Positions 51,480 through 64,000 of a DNA stretch of 64,000 nucleotides are shown one piece after another (positions within the stretch are counted from its first letter, which is position 1; the number at the start of each line of letters is the position of its first letter). The notes beneath the pieces were generated by a model. The model made no database searches, was not told the DNA's origin, and saw only the letters and a program-made list of their open reading frames with translations. Position numbers and translations under genes: made by a program. This stretch comes from an uncultured Anaerolineaceae bacterium. Its GTDB lineage: Bacteria; Chloroflexota; Anaerolineae; Anaerolineales; Anaerolineaceae. The stretch lies in the NCBI GenBank assembly GCA_937897615.1, contig CALCNO010000046.1:9463-73462 (forward strand), written 5' to 3'.

Positions 51480-52301
51480 TTATAAGCGCAGGTTCCAATT
51501 ATTGCTGGCGTACTTGGTTTGCTGCAGTTCTTTCGCGTTCTCTAATTCCATTGGGCTTGGTGTTGAAGGGTGAAATTCTATGTTCAACGCCTGAGAAAAA
51601 CCACGCACAAAAGCCTGTTGTGCCTGCACAAGAGGAATGTTTTTGCCGGTGAGCGACATTATTGTGCCGGCATGGGCCAACAAGGATTCAACAGCTTCTT
51701 TATACTTTTCCTCATTTTCATAACTCAAAACGGAGGTAATCCTTGTGAGGTCGCCATAAAGCGGTAAGGAACCGTGCTGTAGCACCCCATTGTTTTTACG
51801 GGCCTGAGCAGACCCGATCAGTTTTTTCCCGTTCACAGTGATCTCGTAATTGGAAGGAACTTCAAAGCAAACAGGGCCAGAACGATTGCTCGTCACCGCC
51901 GGTGCGTACATACTATCGGCGCTGGCATCGATTTGCAATACAGCAAGGGCAGCCAGCAACGCTGTGGATACCCGATGGTAACTTTCTAAAAGTGAGCCTC
52001 CCATTATGGAGTCTTCTGCCGGTGCAGTGATGGAGTAAGTAAGTTCATCTGTATGCAGAATGGCCCGTCCCCCGGTCGGACGCCGGACCAGATCCCACCC
52101 TGCACGTTGTAGAGAGTCACGGTTCACGTCGCTACTTGGTTGCGCGTAGCCTAGCGAGAGCGCAGCAGGCGCCCAGGAATATAGCCGGAGGGCGGGGAGT
52201 TCTACACGGCTTGCAGCAGAAAGCAAAAGCGCTTCGTCCAGTGCCATGTTCCAAGCGCCAGAAGCCGGTTCAGAGAGAATCAATCGCCAATGAGTTACCA
52301 T
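51480..52301 (-). CDS. Lipoate-protein ligase / octanoyltransferase family protein (BPL/LPL catalytic domain)
   Basis: Start trimmed to MVTHWRL (GGAAGGGAA upstream). Motifs RRPTGGRAILH and KKLIGSAQARK. Confidence 0.8.
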   Translation of the reverse strand: MVTHWRLILSEPASGAWNMALDEALLLSAASRVELPALRLYSWAPAALSLGYAQPSSDVNRDSLQRAGWDLVRRPTGGRAILHTDELTYSITAPAEDSIMGGSLLESYHRVSTALLAALAVLQIDASADSMYAPAVTSNRSGPVCFEVPSNYEITVNGKKLIGSAQARKNNGVLQHGSLPLYGDLTRITSVLSYENEEKYKEAVESLLAHAGTIMSLTGKNIPLVQAQQAFVRGFSQALNIEFHPSTPSPMELENAKELQQTKYASNNWNLRL

Positions 52302-52377
52302 TATAGTTTCCCTTCCACCGGTCAATTATAAACAACTCTTTGTTCTTATTTTGATAAATTTGGGAAAATTTGACTTC

Positions 52378-57688: not shown

Positions 57689-59413
57689 ATGAAAAATGGT
57701 TTCTATGAACAGCAGGTGAAAGTAGAATCCTCACGTCCAACAATTGAACTGATTTTTTCGGATGGGCGCGTTTTCACAGGTGAACGCGGCGCTTCTCTTG
57801 AAAAGCTTTTGCAGCAATTGCCCGAGTGGGATAACCCGCCGATTATGGGGGCGGTTGTGAACGGGGAATTGCGCGAGCTTACCTATCCCGTTGAAATGGA
57901 CTCGCGTATCCGCCTGGTAACGATGGGGGATGATGATGGCGCACGAATCTACCGCCGCTCCATCACCTTTTTGCTTGAGGCAGCTTTTGAGGAACTTTTT
58001 CCCAACCTTGTGATGACGTTGGATCATTCCGTTTCCGCTGGGGGGTACTTCTGCCAGTTGGCGGATGAAAGCGTGCTCACCCGTAATGAATTGGAAAAGC
58101 TCAAGGCACGCATGCAGGAGTTGATCGATGCCAACCTTCCGTTTGAGCGCACCAGTGTGCCTCTGCAGGAAGCGATCCAGTACTTTGCAGCCAAAAAACT
58201 TGATGACAAAGTGAAGTTGCTCAAATATCGCCAGAAAGAGTACCTGATCCTTTACCGGCTTGGCGATCACCAGGATTATCATCACGGCTATATGGTTCCC
58301 ACAACCGGGTACCTTAAATGGTTCGACCTGGAGTTGGTGGGGGAGGGGTTTGTTCTGCGTTTCCCGCGGCGCAACTCTCCGAAAACGATCGACCCAATGC
58401 CGAGTTATCCCAAGCTGCTGAGCACTTTCCGCCAGTATGGGAATTGGCTGAAACGTCTTGGCATTGAATCCGTTGGCGCTTTGAACGATACCATTCAGGC
58501 GGGGAACATTCGTGAGATCATCCTGGTCTCAGAGGCACTGCACGAGCTGCAGATTATCGATATTGCCCAGCACATCGCCGAGAAGGCCGATGAGGCGCGC
58601 ATCATTCTGATTGCCGGTCCTTCCTCCTCGGGCAAGACCACATTCTCCAAACGCCTTTCAGTGCAATTGCTGGCAAACGGGTTTTCGCCCTATCCCATCG
58701 AAATGGATAATTATTTTATCAACCGCGAACTCACCCCCAAGGACGCGAGTGGGCAATATGATTTTGAATCTCTGGGTGCTATGGATACGCAAAGGCTTTC
58801 TGCTGATTTAAAGCGCCTCATTGCCGGCGAAGCGGTGCAATTGCCCCACTACAACTTCCGCGAGGGGCGCAGCGAGCCGGGTGAAATGGTGAAACTGGAA
58901 AAGGATCAGATTCTGATCCTGGAAGGGATTCACGGTCTGAACCCTCAACTGCTGCCGAACATTGATCCGGCATCCACTTTCAAAATCTATGCTTCATGCC
59001 TCACGCAACTGAATCTTGATCGCTACAACCGTATTTCGACAACTGATACGCGCCTCATCCGTCGTATTGTGCGCGACTCTCGCGAACGCGGCTATACAGC
59101 ACAGCAAACCATTGGCCGTTGGGAGTCCGTCCAGCGCGGCGAGAAGGAATACATCTTCCCGTATCAGGAAAACGGCAATAAACTGTTCAATTCGGCTTTG
59201 GTCTATGAGCTTTCAGCACTGCGTCTGCTGGCAGAGCCTTTGCTGCGCCAGGTGCCCTATGGCACACCGGAATACGTTGAGGCAAAACGCCTGCTGGCGT
59301 TTTTGGAATGGTTCCTGCCCATTGATACCAGTCTGGTCCCGGATAACTCGATCTTGCTGGAATTTGTCGGTGGGTCGATATTGAAAGACTTTAAGCTTTG
59401 GGAAGCCAAATAA
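57689..59413 (+). CDS. TGS / tRNA-SAD-like N-terminal region fused to a uridine kinase/phosphoribulokinase-family P-loop kinase
   Basis: N-terminal TGS-like beta-grasp, then a ThrRS/AlaRS second-additional-domain-like region, then P-loop IAGPSSSGKTTF with a Udk-like C-terminal half. Confidence 0.7.
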   Translation: MKNGFYEQQVKVESSRPTIELIFSDGRVFTGERGASLEKLLQQLPEWDNPPIMGAVVNGELRELTYPVEMDSRIRLVTMGDDDGARIYRRSITFLLEAAFEELFPNLVMTLDHSVSAGGYFCQLADESVLTRNELEKLKARMQELIDANLPFERTSVPLQEAIQYFAAKKLDDKVKLLKYRQKEYLILYRLGDHQDYHHGYMVPTTGYLKWFDLELVGEGFVLRFPRRNSPKTIDPMPSYPKLLSTFRQYGNWLKRLGIESVGALNDTIQAGNIREIILVSEALHELQIIDIAQHIAEKADEARIILIAGPSSSGKTTFSKRLSVQLLANGFSPYPIEMDNYFINRELTPKDASGQYDFESLGAMDTQRLSADLKRLIAGEAVQLPHYNFREGRSEPGEMVKLEKDQILILEGIHGLNPQLLPNIDPASTFKIYASCLTQLNLDRYNRISTTDTRLIRRIVRDSRERGYTAQQTIGRWESVQRGEKEYIFPYQENGNKLFNSALVYELSALRLLAEPLLRQVPYGTPEYVEAKRLLAFLEWFLPIDTSLVPDNSILLEFVGGSILKDFKLWEAK

Positions 59414-59451: not shown

Positions 59452-60672
59452 TTACGAGCGTAATTTATTCTTGAAGGCTCTTCCTAGCCTAGAGATTCCT
59501 TCATTAATAAGCTCTGGATTGCAGAAGGAAAAGTTTAGCCGCATGGTGTTCTTTCCGGCCCCGTCAGGATGGAAGAATTCGCCGGGCACATAAGCGACCT
59601 TCTCATTGATCGCCTCGCTGAGCATTTCGGTGGCGTCGAATTGTTTGGGGAGGGTGACCCACAGGAACAGTCCGCCTTGCGGCCGGGTCCAGGTGACCCC
59701 TTCTGGCATGTGCTCTTCAAGTGATTCCAGCATGGCATCACGCCGTTCGCGGTAAACCTTTTGGATCAGGGTGACATGCCGATCAATGAACCCGTGCTGG
59801 CCCACCTCGTGCGTAACGATCTGGTTAAAGGTGGAGGTGTGCAGATCGGTACCTTGCTTGGCAAGCGAAAGTTTACGGATGACCTCTTTGGGCGCAATCA
59901 CCCAGGCCAGACGGATGCCCGGCGCCAGGATTTTGGAGAAAGTGGACAGGTAGATGACGTTGCCGCTGTAGCTATCGGTGTTCAAGCGTGTGCGCGAGTC
60001 GATCAATTCAACAGCGGGGAGATGCTCGCCCTCATAGCGCAGTTGCCCGTAAGGATCGTCCTCGATGATGGGGACACCGTAGCGATCTGCCAACTCGACC
60101 AGTTTCTGGCGGCGCTCCACGGGCAACGTAGTTCCGGTGGGGTTTTGGAAATTTGGAAGCACATAAATGAACTTGGGGCCAATGCGCAGCGCTTCTTCGA
60201 GCCTGTCGGTCTGCATACCGTTTTCGTCTGCGGGGACGGAAATATACTCCGCGCCATAGGCGTTCCAGGCTTGCAGCGCTCCCAGATAGGTTGGCGATTC
60301 TACCAGGATGCGATCACCGCGATTGATGAAAATCTTTCCGAGCAGGTCCAGCGCCTGCTGCGAACCAGAGGTGATGAGGATGTTATCAATGTCTACGTTG
60401 ATCCCAATGGCGCTGGTGTGCCGTGCGATCATCTCGCGCAACGGCACATAGCCATCTGTTCCGCCATACTGCAAAGCATCAGCACCCTTATGCTCTAACA
60501 CAGCGATACACGCCCGTTTGAATTCATCCACCGGGAAAACATCGGCAGCCGGAAACCCGCCGCCAAACGAAATCATATTCGGTTGCTCCGTGATCTTTAG
60601 CAGTTCACGGATTGCCGATGCCTTCATCTTCTGCGTGCGCTGAGCATATCGGTAATCCCATGGTGTTTGCAT
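59452..60672 (-). CDS. PLP-dependent aminotransferase, class I/II (2-aminoadipate/aromatic transaminase-like)
   Basis: N-terminal MKASAIRELLK motif, the LSTFSKILAPGIRLAW region containing the PLP-lysine, ~406 aa. Confidence 0.82.
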   Translation of the reverse strand: MQTPWDYRYAQRTQKMKASAIRELLKITEQPNMISFGGGFPAADVFPVDEFKRACIAVLEHKGADALQYGGTDGYVPLREMIARHTSAIGINVDIDNILITSGSQQALDLLGKIFINRGDRILVESPTYLGALQAWNAYGAEYISVPADENGMQTDRLEEALRIGPKFIYVLPNFQNPTGTTLPVERRQKLVELADRYGVPIIEDDPYGQLRYEGEHLPAVELIDSRTRLNTDSYSGNVIYLSTFSKILAPGIRLAWVIAPKEVIRKLSLAKQGTDLHTSTFNQIVTHEVGQHGFIDRHVTLIQKVYRERRDAMLESLEEHMPEGVTWTRPQGGLFLWVTLPKQFDATEMLSEAINEKVAYVPGEFFHPDGAGKNTMRLNFSFCNPELINEGISRLGRAFKNKLRS

Positions 60673-60706: not shown

Positions 60707-63700
60707 CTAAAGCTTTGGGAATCGACTGATAACTGTTGCAGGGGTTGGCAGGGTTACCCTGTCTCCGGCTTGTAGTTCAGCAGGAGCCTTGGATGCCTGG
60801 CTGGGTGCCCCCTGGAAAATGAAGATGGGAGTGTTCTCTTCGGCACTGCGCAGGTCAACGTATGCCTGCCCGGTGAGGTAGCCTTCTTTGTCGATGGCGC
60901 AACTGGTGACCACGCCCAAGACCTTGCCTTTCGCGTCTAACACCGGGTCGCCGTTATGCGACATGCGCACGCCTTTTTCAATGAAGCGGAAGCGCACCAC
61001 AACACCCTTGCGTTTGGCTTCTCGTTCGATGAAGGCTTTGCGCCCAATGAACCAGGGTTTGTAGGTCTTTACGTAGGAACCAAACCCGGCTTCGGCAACG
61101 CCAAAATTCATCTCGCCGCCCATCTCGTGGCCATAAAGCGGCAGGCCGGCCTCAGTGCGCAGGGAATCGCGGGCGCCAAGGCCGCAGGCTTTCATACCCA
61201 GGGGTTCACCAACTTTGCGCAGGGCTTCCCACAATTGTGCTGCTTTCTGTGGATGCACAAAGAGTTCAAAGGCCATCTTCTCGCCGGTATAGCCGGTGCG
61301 GGAAACCACCAGGTCAAAGCCGCCCACAGTGGCTTCACATAATTCAGTACGCTTGAGAGCTTTGATCTTTTTGCCAGTGGCGGCGTCACAGCCGAGTGCC
61401 AGCAGGATGTCTCTTGATTTCGGTCCCTGCAGGGCAATATCCACGCGCATATCGGCACCCTCTTTGGGGTCGCGCAGGTTGCGCAGGGTCACAGTGCTTC
61501 CGTAGGTAGTTACCCACGGGCGTTCATTGTCGATGGCAACCTTATGCTCGCGGACGGCATTGAGCCAAGCCCAATCCTTGTCGTCATTTGAGGCGTTAAC
61601 CACCACCAGGTATTTTTCTTCGGCGCGGCGGTAAACCAGCGTATCGTCAATGACGTTGGAGTTGGGGTCCAAGAAGTGTGTGTAGCAGGATTCGCCAATT
61701 TCCAGGCCGCCGATGTCATTGCCGCAGACTGTATCCAGGAATTGTGCGGCGTGTGGGCCTTCGGCCTGGAAGACGCCCATGTGAGCTACATCGAACAATC
61801 CGGCAGCTTCACGGCAAGCCTGATGTTCTTCCACCACTGAGGTGTACCAGACGGGCATTTCCCATCCTGCGAAGGGGATGATCTTGGCGCCCATCGCCTT
61901 GTGAATCTCATAAAGCGGGGTGCGCTTGAGCGCGCTCTCCTGAGGTTCTTTCCATTCAAATGCTGCCAGGGCTTTCTCGGGAGAATCTGTTTGCCCGATG
62001 AAATAGGGTTTTGTTTTGCTTTCAACACTGCTCTTGGCTTCTTTTACCAGGTTGGCGTTTTCAGAAATGAGGATGGGGCCGGGAATGCGGCGCGGCAAAT
62101 CCTGGTCAAAGGAGATATACCCATCGGAGAGGTCGCGCAGGAAGGTTGCCACCAGCCCAAATTCCTTGCTGGCAAAGGTGAAACTGAATTTATTTTTTGC
62201 TTCCTTGCACAAAGTGCCAGCGATCTTTTGCGCGCCGATGGTCAGGGATGCCGACTGGCTTTCTCCAGTTTTTAGCAGGTCGCTTGCAGAGGAGAAGCAA
62301 TATTGCACAAAGTGCTCTACGTGCTCGCCGGCGATCTCGAGGGCCGTGGTAGCTGCGGTACTTTGTGCTTTGTCATCGAGATAATAAAAGTGTGGATAGC
62401 CGTGGCGTGTGAATTCAAGGTCGGCGCCGGCTTTTTCCGCCAGATTGCGAATGCGTAGTTTTACGTCTTCAAGAACTTTAAAGTCCACTTTGGCACGCAC
62501 CACCGGGCCTTTGCGCGATTCCACTGAATAGGGAACGGTTGCCAGCAGGAGGTCGGCAATGGCATCGCCAACAGTCTCCATGTCCTTTTCAACCAGGCCG
62601 CGCTGGGTCATCCACGGGGTGCCGTAGCGGATGCCGGAAGCGAAAAGGGCGGTTTTGTCACCGGGGATGGTGTTGCGGTTGAGCACGATCCCGGCCACAT
62701 CGAGAATGCGCGCAGCCATATCGCCGGACAGTGGCGTGCCATCCGGCCCTACAATGGTTTTGCAGTCCACATTGCCGAGGTGAGAGTTGGTGCCGCCAAA
62801 GGAGATGCGCAGCCCACGTGCTTTGAGGCGGTTGGTGAGCGCAAGATTGTTCTTCAGGATTTGCTGCTGCAATTTCTGGAAAGCCTCGCTCCTGGCGATC
62901 TTGAAGGTGGTGGCCAGTGCGGCAAAGACATGCACGTGCGGGCCGCCCTGTTCGCCGGGGAACACAGCCTTGTCGATCTTTTTGGCCAGGGCCGAATCTG
63001 CCGTGAGGATACAGGCGCCGCGCGGGCCGCAGAGTGTTTTGTGCGTGGTAAAGGTGATCACGTGCGCATACCCCACCGGGGAGGGTACTGCCTTCCCCGC
63101 GATCAAACCGGCGATGTGCGAGACATCCGCCAGCAGGTACGCGCCAACGGAATCGGCGATGGCTCTGAAGCGTGCCCAATCCGGGATCCACGGATAGGAG
63201 GAGTACCCGCAGATGATCACTTTGGGAGAATTCTCTTTTGCAATGGCCTCGATCTTGTCGTAATCCAATTGCTCAGTCTGGGGGTCAACGCTATAATGAA
63301 CGACTTTGTATAACTTACCGGAGCGGTTAACCGAGGAACCGTGGGTGAGGTGTCCGCCGTGCAGCAGGTTCATTCCCAGGATGGTATCGCCGGGTTCGAT
63401 CAACGCATGGTATACCGCGTTGTTGGCCGGTGCGCCTGAAAGCGCCTGAACATTGACGTAAAGCTGGTCCGCGGTGACCTTGTCGGTAGCAAAAACCTCC
63501 GCGCAGCGGCGGCGCGCCAGTGCTTCAACGACATCGGCGTATTCCACGCCCTTGTAATAGCGCGGATCGGCATAGCGCCGGTAATAAGAGAGGCGGGCAG
63601 GATAATCCAGTATCTCGCCCTCTTTCATCCAACGCGTCTCTTCGTCAGGGTATCCTTCGGCGTACAGGTTCTGGAATACAGATGAAAGTGACTCGCGCAC

Positions 63701-63832
63701 AGCCACTGGAGCGGTGCTTTCTGAGGGGATGAGGATCAGTTTGCGAAACTGCCTTTCGGTTTCGAAACTGGTCAGTTGTTGCACATCAGGGTCGATGTCG
63801 CTCAGGTTTCCGCGGAACAAGAAGTCAGTCAT
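60707..63832 (-). CDS. Fusion protein: serine hydroxymethyltransferase (N-terminal) + unassigned middle region + glycine-cleavage T-protein/aminomethyltransferase (C-terminal)
   Basis: Start trimmed to MTDFLFRG (GGAGA upstream). SHMT motifs LIPSES, HLTHGS and TFTTHKTLCGPRGA. The GcvT part begins near KRTPLYEIHKAMGAKIIPFAGWEMPVWY and continues to the stop. It is a single uninterrupted frame. Confidence 0.85.
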   Translation of the reverse strand: MTDFLFRGNLSDIDPDVQQLTSFETERQFRKLILIPSESTAPVAVRESLSSVFQNLYAEGYPDEETRWMKEGEILDYPARLSYYRRYADPRYYKGVEYADVVEALARRRCAEVFATDKVTADQLYVNVQALSGAPANNAVYHALIEPGDTILGMNLLHGGHLTHGSSVNRSGKLYKVVHYSVDPQTEQLDYDKIEAIAKENSPKVIICGYSSYPWIPDWARFRAIADSVGAYLLADVSHIAGLIAGKAVPSPVGYAHVITFTTHKTLCGPRGACILTADSALAKKIDKAVFPGEQGGPHVHVFAALATTFKIARSEAFQKLQQQILKNNLALTNRLKARGLRISFGGTNSHLGNVDCKTIVGPDGTPLSGDMAARILDVAGIVLNRNTIPGDKTALFASGIRYGTPWMTQRGLVEKDMETVGDAIADLLLATVPYSVESRKGPVVRAKVDFKVLEDVKLRIRNLAEKAGADLEFTRHGYPHFYYLDDKAQSTAATTALEIAGEHVEHFVQYCFSSASDLLKTGESQSASLTIGAQKIAGTLCKEAKNKFSFTFASKEFGLVATFLRDLSDGYISFDQDLPRRIPGPILISENANLVKEAKSSVESKTKPYFIGQTDSPEKALAAFEWKEPQESALKRTPLYEIHKAMGAKIIPFAGWEMPVWYTSVVEEHQACREAAGLFDVAHMGVFQAEGPHAAQFLDTVCGNDIGGLEIGESCYTHFLDPNSNVIDDTLVYRRAEEKYLVVVNASNDDKDWAWLNAVREHKVAIDNERPWVTTYGSTVTLRNLRDPKEGADMRVDIALQGPKSRDILLALGCDAATGKKIKALKRTELCEATVGGFDLVVSRTGYTGEKMAFELFVHPQKAAQLWEALRKVGEPLGMKACGLGARDSLRTEAGLPLYGHEMGGEMNFGVAEAGFGSYVKTYKPWFIGRKAFIEREAKRKGVVVRFRFIEKGVRMSHNGDPVLDAKGKVLGVVTSCAIDKEGYLTGQAYVDLRSAEENTPIFIFQGAPSQASKAPAELQAGDRVTLPTPATVISRFPKL

Positions 63833-63857
63833 CGTTTTTCTCCAGGTTAAATTTAAA

Positions 63858-63904
63858 TAAAAAACCACCTTTGGAGCGCTGGTCAGCGTATCCTGGAGTG
63901 GTTT
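63858..63904 (-). terminator. Terminator-like hairpin plus U-tract inside the 5' leader of the SHMT-GcvT gene (possible attenuator or riboswitch expression platform)
   Basis: The minus strand reads AACCACT-CCA-GGA-TA-CGCT-GACC-AGCG-C-TCC-AAA-GGTGGTT followed by TTTTTATTT. The U-tract ends ~25 nt before the ATG, leaving room only for the Shine-Dalgarno. Confidence 0.45.
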
Positions 63905-64000
63905 AATCGAGAGGGTTCAGTCATTCGTTACTCAGTTATCAGATTCTCACTGATCAACAGGACGATCAGGATCAGACTTGAAACCTTCCTTACGCGCTTA

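Follow-up and report, generated by a model that had tools for sequence, protein, structure and literature searches.

A serine hydroxymethyltransferase fused to a glycine-cleavage T-protein, with the remnant of a second T-protein between them, in Anaerolineae

Does one gene of an uncultured Anaerolineaceae bacterium encode both serine hydroxymethyltransferase (SHMT) and GcvT, the T-protein of the glycine cleavage system, and if so, what would the joined protein do? Most cells draw their one-carbon (C1) units mainly from two sources, SHMT and the glycine cleavage system, whose functional coupling as separate proteins is known, for example, from photorespiration and the reductive glycine pathway. 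The gene in question lies on the minus strand of a 64,000-nucleotide stretch of contig CALCNO010000046.1 (assembly GCA_937897615.1, positions 9,463 to 73,462), referred to here as the window. A first-pass annotation had described it as a single open reading frame (ORF) of 1041 aa uniting the two enzymes. This description is borne out, in that there is one frame, both halves are complete and their catalytic residues are intact; the view of two joined enzymes nevertheless needs amending, because a third module, an inactive piece of a second GcvT, forms the apparent linker. No characterised SHMT-GcvT fusion was known to the first annotator, and a full-text literature search likewise found no paper describing one.

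The ORF listing of the window gives an uninterrupted open frame at 60707..63868. Translation from the ATG at 63832 yields 1041 codons and a product of 1041 aa, with the stop codon at 60707-60709. An alternative in-frame GTG lies upstream at 63868, but the ATG is favoured because it has a GGAG ribosome-binding site 8 nt upstream and because homologues, whose N-termini align from the Met encoded at 63832, begin at the same residue.

The N-terminal module is a complete SHMT. It scores 411.2 bits with Pfam PF00464 (cut-off 27; residues 83-425 plus an N-terminal stretch) and 427.5 bits with NCBIfam NF000586 (cut-off 335), and it matches E. coli SHMT (1DFO) at an E-value of 4.6e-96. The pyridoxal phosphate (PLP) motif TFTTHKTLCGPRGA contains K265, and alignment to 1DFO places Y57, E59, Y93, H161, D236, H239, T263, H264, K265, R271 and R402 at known catalytic, PLP or folate positions. 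In a comparison of 67 species, Y93, H161, D236, H239, H264, K265, R271 and R402 are invariant, Y57, E59 and T263 are kept in 66 species, and the SHMT core (residues 1-431) has a mean identity of 64% to the window protein. When the whole AlphaFold2 (AF2) model was compared with the Protein Data Bank (PDB) by Foldseek, the top 50 matches were all SHMTs (TMt 0.70-0.85). Two additions set the module apart: an insert after YAEGYP, common to every fusion-type sequence examined and to the split forms described below, and a C-terminal extension modelled as two strands (432-439 and 442-450) and a helix (451-468).

The C-terminal module is a T-protein by every catalytic feature that was compared. Pfam PF01571 (GCV_T) covers residues 640-909 with 252 bits, the NCBIfam GcvT equivalog TIGR00528 scores 259.6 bits (cut-off 235.85), and the module matches 1YX2 over its full length at an E-value of 1.5e-62 and 1WOO at 3.1e-54. 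Alignment to 1WOO equates N746 with the conserved Asn N112 of the T. maritima protein, and the GLGARDSLRTEAGLPLYG motif is kept relative to the T-proteins of T. maritima and B. subtilis. D729, D730, N746, R888 and E894 are invariant in the 67-species comparison, in which residues 633-1000 show a mean identity of 61%; every catalytic residue checked in the two halves is thus invariant or present in 66 of 67 species. The module also carries an insert of about 20 aa (about 768-790) and a C-terminal tail of about 40 aa. All families of tetrahydrofolate (THF)-dependent demethylases with a GcvT fold (DmdA, LigM/DesA, trimethylamine N-oxide (TMAO) demethylase, SoxA) remain far below their equivalog cut-offs, with scores against cut-offs of 154/1100, 112/1164, 72/410, 43/580 and 39/800. 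The region between SHMT and GcvT reaches a mean identity of only 28-31%. To judge from this difference (64% and 61% versus 28-31%) and from the invariant catalytic residues, both halves are under purifying selection.

An assembly or frameshift artefact that merged two neighbouring genes would also produce such a frame, and the window does come from a draft of 227 contigs with an estimated contamination of 5.4%. The same collinear frame, however, is found in an independent assembly, where a 1.1-Mb contig carries a 98%-identical homologue, likewise of 1041 aa, that differs by 18 substitutions and is free of indels. Complete chromosomes and 72 of the 401 Chloroflexota genomes sampled have this frame too, and the junction encodes a folded, conserved domain, as detailed below. 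The probability of an artefact is vanishingly small on this evidence.

Among the 72 sampled genomes with the fusion, 51 (the window genome included) have a single-frame match spanning residues 1 to about 1040 and 21 have a longer single-frame form of 1106-1426 aa. The matches listed in a homologue search include 120 close full-length homologues, which measure 1037-1065 aa apart from one of 1018 aa. About 70 clusters (50% identity) of fusions of 1027-1339 aa occur among 1.8 billion cluster representatives. A pattern scan of one genome per species gave at least 600 matched stretches, and 597 of the 600 among the matches listed encode a relative. Nearly all of the best 80, from which labels were taken, carry an Anaerolineae label (Anaerolineales, Aggregatilineales, Ardenticatenaceae, Promineofilum, Phototrophicaceae and Flexilinea). 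Several of the relatives sit on complete chromosomes, among them the complete genome of Aggregatilineales bacterium SYSU G02658 (CP146238.1), titled without the label of a metagenome-assembled genome (MAG). Two MAGs labelled Ca. Bipolaricaulota also match, at 43% identity. The fusion is common in this bacterial group.

Fusion contigs (L050, L091 and L101) were also seen in MAGs labelled Nitrosomonadaceae, Desulfarculaceae and Spirochaetales. Their proteins are 44-56% identical to that of Anaerolineae, and the contigs may reflect mis-binning or mislabelling instead of transfer. In two genomes, a fusion of ~1040 aa occurs alongside a longer one of 1224-1283 aa, on contigs C263 and C604 of G015 and on C5 and C56 of G338. 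These pairs may be paralogues or bin contamination, which is 8% in G015.

The region of about 160 aa that separates the two enzymes derives from a second GcvT, of which a fragment without catalytic capacity is left; the evidence comes from its sequence profile, from its fold and from longer relatives that form a graded series. Pfam gave no match on the window protein's own linker, which could be identified only through the longer relatives and through profiles built from many linkers. Alignment of the linker with the protein's own GcvT by hhalign gave an E-value of 3.3e-4, in register (497-580 versus 687-772), compared with 0.19 for a profile-profile control of the linker against SHMT. A profile of 55 linkers, searched against all PDB sequences, found B. 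subtilis GcvT (1YX2) at an E-value of 1.6e-15, with profile positions 17-103 aligned to GcvT 54-140; sarcosine oxidase alpha and other GcvTs followed, and the top 16 matches were all of the GcvT fold. The linkers of longer relatives exceed the Pfam GCV_T cut-off (25.6 bits) by margins that shrink stepwise (82.9, 65.5, 30.4 and 29 bits), whereas that of a split form scores 15.7 bits. Since the structure search with the whole model had returned SHMT only, a separate AF2 model of the linker was needed. It has a pLDDT of 87, its top 49 PDB matches by Foldseek are all of the GcvT fold, and it superimposes on such structures with a root-mean-square deviation of ~2 Å over ~100 columns.

Of the second GcvT, the window protein retains about 95 residues and none of the remaining fold. 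The catalytic Asp-Asp pair is Ala-Gly here, and the remnant lacks what marks a competent GcvT, namely the Asp pair, TGYTGE and a complete three-domain cloverleaf. It has nonetheless gained a nearly invariant W-L-R-x-L-S-D-G-Y ... P-G-P motif, and this near-invariance suggests that the remnant has kept a structural role. The middle module of the long fusions often keeps Asp-Asp but is without TGYTGE, as in L018 (residues ~537-810), L019, L080, P0128, P0130 and P0157.

The history of the fusion was approached through a tree of SHMT modules in which fused and split forms were set against 14 canonical Chloroflexota SHMTs (rows L115, L014 and P0204 left out at a motif filter), with the root implied only by the canonical group. 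A 100/100 branch separates all fused and split forms from the canonical proteins, which speaks for a single origin, and long SHMT-GcvT'-GcvT forms diverge first, beside this branch. Proteins consisting only of SHMT plus the remnant nest twice within the fused group. At one split locus (L015, G346:C25, 578-3660, minus strand), a 612-aa SHMT-plus-remnant ORF ends in TGA and is followed after 47 nt by a 431-aa GcvT in a different frame; at another (L016, G283:C1, 2878-4821, minus strand), an SHMT-plus-remnant protein of 648 aa has no adjacent GcvT. Since a remnant of GcvT persists in the split proteins, secondary fission is the best reading of their origin. The ancestor was likely an SHMT-GcvT-GcvT protein of about 1200 aa, and the likely order of events leads from this protein through decay of the middle copy to the 1041-aa Anaerolineae form, most of the middle copy having been lost in the Anaerolineae line. 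This gradation from a complete module to a 95-residue stub, sometimes with subsequent fission, offers a clear case of a duplicated catalytic domain becoming a structural spacer.

The window genome (2.56 Mb, 99.3% complete) has a single SHMT locus and a single GCV_T locus, and both are the fusion gene. Likewise, eight of nine sampled genomes of the same family have no match other than the fusion at E <= 1e-20. The first-pass annotation had seen no H-, P- or L-protein gene next to the fusion, and these genes are indeed located on other contigs: gcvH, gcvPA and gcvPB stand together, without gcvT, on contig C201, preceded by a lone aptamer of a glycine riboswitch (RF00504; 54.9 bits, E 1.5e-9), and the L-protein, dihydrolipoyl dehydrogenase, is encoded with a score of 561 bits (cut-off 408.8). 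The lipoate ligase gene reported some 8 kb from the fusion was recovered at that distance and is of the LplA/B type. FolD and formate-THF ligase (Fhs) are encoded as well. An Fe-S L-serine dehydratase was not found in the window genome, so that a route from glycine through serine to pyruvate is not established.

Most likely the protein is a housekeeping enzyme with two functions, through which glycine cleavage is coupled to serine/glycine interconversion. Read from its sequence, it is probably a genuine bifunctional folate enzyme with an active SHMT, an active T-protein and the dead GcvT fragment as a folded spacer. It would supply both activities, since the genome has no other SHMT or T-protein. 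In the proposed mechanism, the glycine riboswitch would control gcvH-gcvPA-gcvPB so that glycine induces H and P. The separately encoded P-protein would load lipoyl-H-protein, from which the T module would take the aminomethyl group, producing 5,10-methylene-THF and ammonia. The SHMT module of the same polypeptide would consume or produce that methylene-THF, giving a net reaction of 2 glycine <-> serine + CO2 + NH3. The fusion would thus serve as the housekeeping SHMT and, when H and P are induced, also as the T-protein of a complete cleavage system. We infer that the protein is a dimer through its SHMT core and that the benefit of the fusion lies in a fixed 1:1 stoichiometry and in the closeness of the two folate sites.

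Several observations weigh against a bifunctional enzyme of this kind. The T module scores 289.5 bits with NF001567, slightly below the cut-off of 300, and Pfam PF08669 fails to recognise its C-terminal barrel (14 bits, E 0.049). AF2 confidence is low for the SHMT N-terminal region and the insert. The free N-terminus of the E. coli T-protein contributes to H-protein binding; the interaction of the T module with H-protein may differ because its N-terminus is tethered. Channelling is of relevance to 2 Gly <-> Ser alone; the two modules act on the same side of methylene-THF both when serine is broken down to C1 units and in the reductive glycine route. As for the barrel, the TIGR00528 alignment reaches position 332 of 362, beta strands are predicted at 943-1038 in the AF2 model, and the PF08669 scores of relatives (17.8-24.6 bits) are all slightly below the cut-off of 25.9.

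The undetected PF08669 barrel, together with the lineage-specific insert of about 20 aa and the C-terminal tail, would also agree with a protein in which only one half is catalytically relevant, the T module being a folate-binding or regulatory appendage or capturing formaldehyde or an iminium onto THF independently of H-protein, in the manner of sarcosine oxidase and dimethylglycine dehydrogenase with their GcvT-like domains. GcvT-fold domains do act as H-protein-independent THF modules in SoxA, DMGDH, DmdA, LigM and TMAO demethylase, which are weaker matches here. Such a reading is very unlikely: the T module is above the TIGR00528 cut-off and far below those of all demethylase families, its GcvT catalytic residues do not vary among the 67 species, and the genome keeps H, PA, PB and L with no other T. 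A bifunctional enzyme remains the preferred reading.

For such an enzyme, channelling of methylene-THF would be plausible. In its strict form, methylene-THF, probably polyglutamylated, would pass between T and SHMT modules without bulk equilibration, and the remnant would help the path or the docking of H-protein. The covalent link has been maintained across phylum-level divergence, the remnant motif is nearly invariant even though the catalytic residues are gone, and stand-alone SHMT-plus-remnant proteins retain the remnant after loss of the T module. DHFR-TS and formiminotransferase-cyclodeaminase are channelling folate-enzyme fusions and provide precedents. By contrast, the spacers between modules are variable and predicted to be disordered, and because split forms exist, the covalent linkage is dispensable in some lineages. 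Strict channelling is considered unlikely. A natural "glycine-to-serine synthase" metabolon, in which an SHMT dimer would carry two T modules and the remnant would act either as H-protein dock or as sheltered path, with direct hand-over of methylene-THF in both cases and in either direction, is a doubtful proposal. If it were true, it would make the fusion a hitherto undescribed kind of folate-channelling device, one of direct use in engineering reductive-glycine pathways.

The coordinates of the fusion gene, its modules and the associated features are collected in Table 1.

Table 1. Features of the SHMT-GcvT fusion gene and associated elements (window coordinates unless another locus is named)
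Feature	Coordinates	Strand	Evidence or remark
Whole gene, encoding SHMT + GcvT remnant + GcvT	60707..63832	-	ORF list, Pfam, NCBIfam, homologues
GGAG ribosome-binding site, 8 nt before ATG 63832	63840..63843	-	Sequence read directly
SHMT module, residues 1-470, fold-type I PLP enzyme	62423..63832	-	PF00464, NF000586, 1DFO, Foldseek
Lineage-specific insert of 27-28 aa, residues 63-90, between YAEGYP and RYYKG	63563..63646	-	Alignments; low-confidence model
Codon of PLP-binding lysine K265, T-H-K motif	63038..63040	-	Aligns to E. coli K229; invariant in 67 species
SHMT C-terminal extension, residues 432-470	62423..62539	-	Predicted beta-hairpin + helix
Pseudo-GcvT remnant, residues 495-591	62060..62350	-	hhalign, linker profile, Foldseek, Pfam on longer relatives
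Variable spacer, residues 592-632	61937..62059	-	28% mean identity over 66 species; without regular structure in model
Complete T-protein module, residues 633-1041	60710..61936	-	PF01571, TIGR00528, 1YX2, 1WOO
Codon of catalytic Asp D730 (= T. maritima D96, E. coli D97)	61643..61645	-	1WOO alignment; invariant in 67 species
Class-I aminotransferase, 34 nt downstream of fusion	59452..60672	-	ORF list, homology, synteny
LplA/B-type lipoate ligase	51480-52325	-	8.4 kb from fusion
Glycine riboswitch	L004 1275-1368, about G000:C201:292160-292253	+	RF00504; 115 nt upstream of gcvH

The aminotransferase gene noted earlier directly downstream of the fusion is present as an ORF and is probably co-transcribed with it. 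This order recurs in 3 of 14 compared loci of fusion-bearing relatives, all in close kin (L007, L009 and L010). A functional link between the two genes was rejected, the synteny being confined to close kin and the enzyme being a broad class-I type without specific assignment. Its closest relatives are PH0207 (a KAT-II homologue), the Thermococcus multiple-substrate aminotransferase, LysN and the T. litoralis alanine:glyoxylate aminotransferase, that is, archaeal and Thermus enzymes of broad specificity; a role in converting glyoxylate to glycine is conceivable but unsupported. Next to it, on the plus strand (57689-59413), lies a 574-aa ORF in which a TGS/ThrRS-like N-terminal part is joined to a P-loop domain of the uridine-kinase-like type; its synteny with the aminotransferase and the fusion extends to L007 and L010.

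Upstream of the fusion gene, a search of Rfam gave no match at E <= 1 and no terminator-like site was found. The intergenic stretch of ~235-240 nt (63833-64000 and beyond; L002 1729-1965) folds no better than shuffled sequences (z = -0.59), and a riboswitch or attenuator at this position was rejected for want of both an Rfam match and a significant fold. A promoter-like TTGACC-17-TAAAAT lies just past the window end, and a T-run occurs ~25 nt before the start codon.

Compared with known systems, the SHMT module has the same fold as stand-alone GlyA (EC 2.1.2.1; E. coli 1DFO, A. halophytica 6YMF), with a Foldseek TMt of 0.84 and an identity of ~40%. Equivalents of the E. coli active-site residues Y55, E57, Y65, H126, D200, H203, T226, H228, K229, R235 and R363 are all present. 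Unlike stand-alone GlyA, the fusion SHMT has the 27-28-aa insert and a C-terminal hairpin-helix extension of ~40 aa, and it continues into ~570 residues of GcvT-derived sequence.

The T module matches GcvT (EC 2.1.2.10; B. subtilis 1YX2, T. maritima 1WOO, E. coli 1VLO/3A8I) over its full length and keeps the catalytic Asp, the Asn of VVNA, TGYTGE and GLGARD-R-EAGLPLYG; the genome also encodes its partner proteins H, P and L. Free GcvT measures ~365 aa, whereas the fusion T module is N-terminally tethered, carries the ~20-aa insert and ~40-aa tail and has a predicted C-terminal barrel that is probably too diverged for PF08669. Sarcosine oxidase alpha, dimethylglycine dehydrogenase/oxidase and TMAO demethylase likewise have a GcvT-like THF module C-terminal to another catalytic domain, and the remnant profile also matches these modules. 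Those domains, however, are independent of H-protein and joined to flavoenzymes, whereas the fusion T module is a true GcvT equivalog by score.

Public annotation names the fusion proteins either 'serine hydroxymethyltransferase' or 'GcvT', and because only one half is named, pathway reconstructions of Anaerolineae can wrongly score one function as missing. A large bacterial group has SHMT and T-protein joined as the sole copy of each, which makes the fusion a natural test case for the direct passing of a shared labile folate intermediate and a ready-made part for synthetic C1-assimilation pathways. Consecutive folate-dependent reactions are likewise placed on one polypeptide in FolD, eukaryotic C1-THF synthase, DHFR-TS and formiminotransferase-cyclodeaminase, and some multifunctional folate enzymes channel the folate intermediate. 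The enzymes paired in these proteins differ from SHMT and GcvT, and no homology is implied. As a kind, however, the fusion belongs with the multifunctional folate enzymes, to which it adds a pairing of SHMT and GcvT for which no report was found in the literature.

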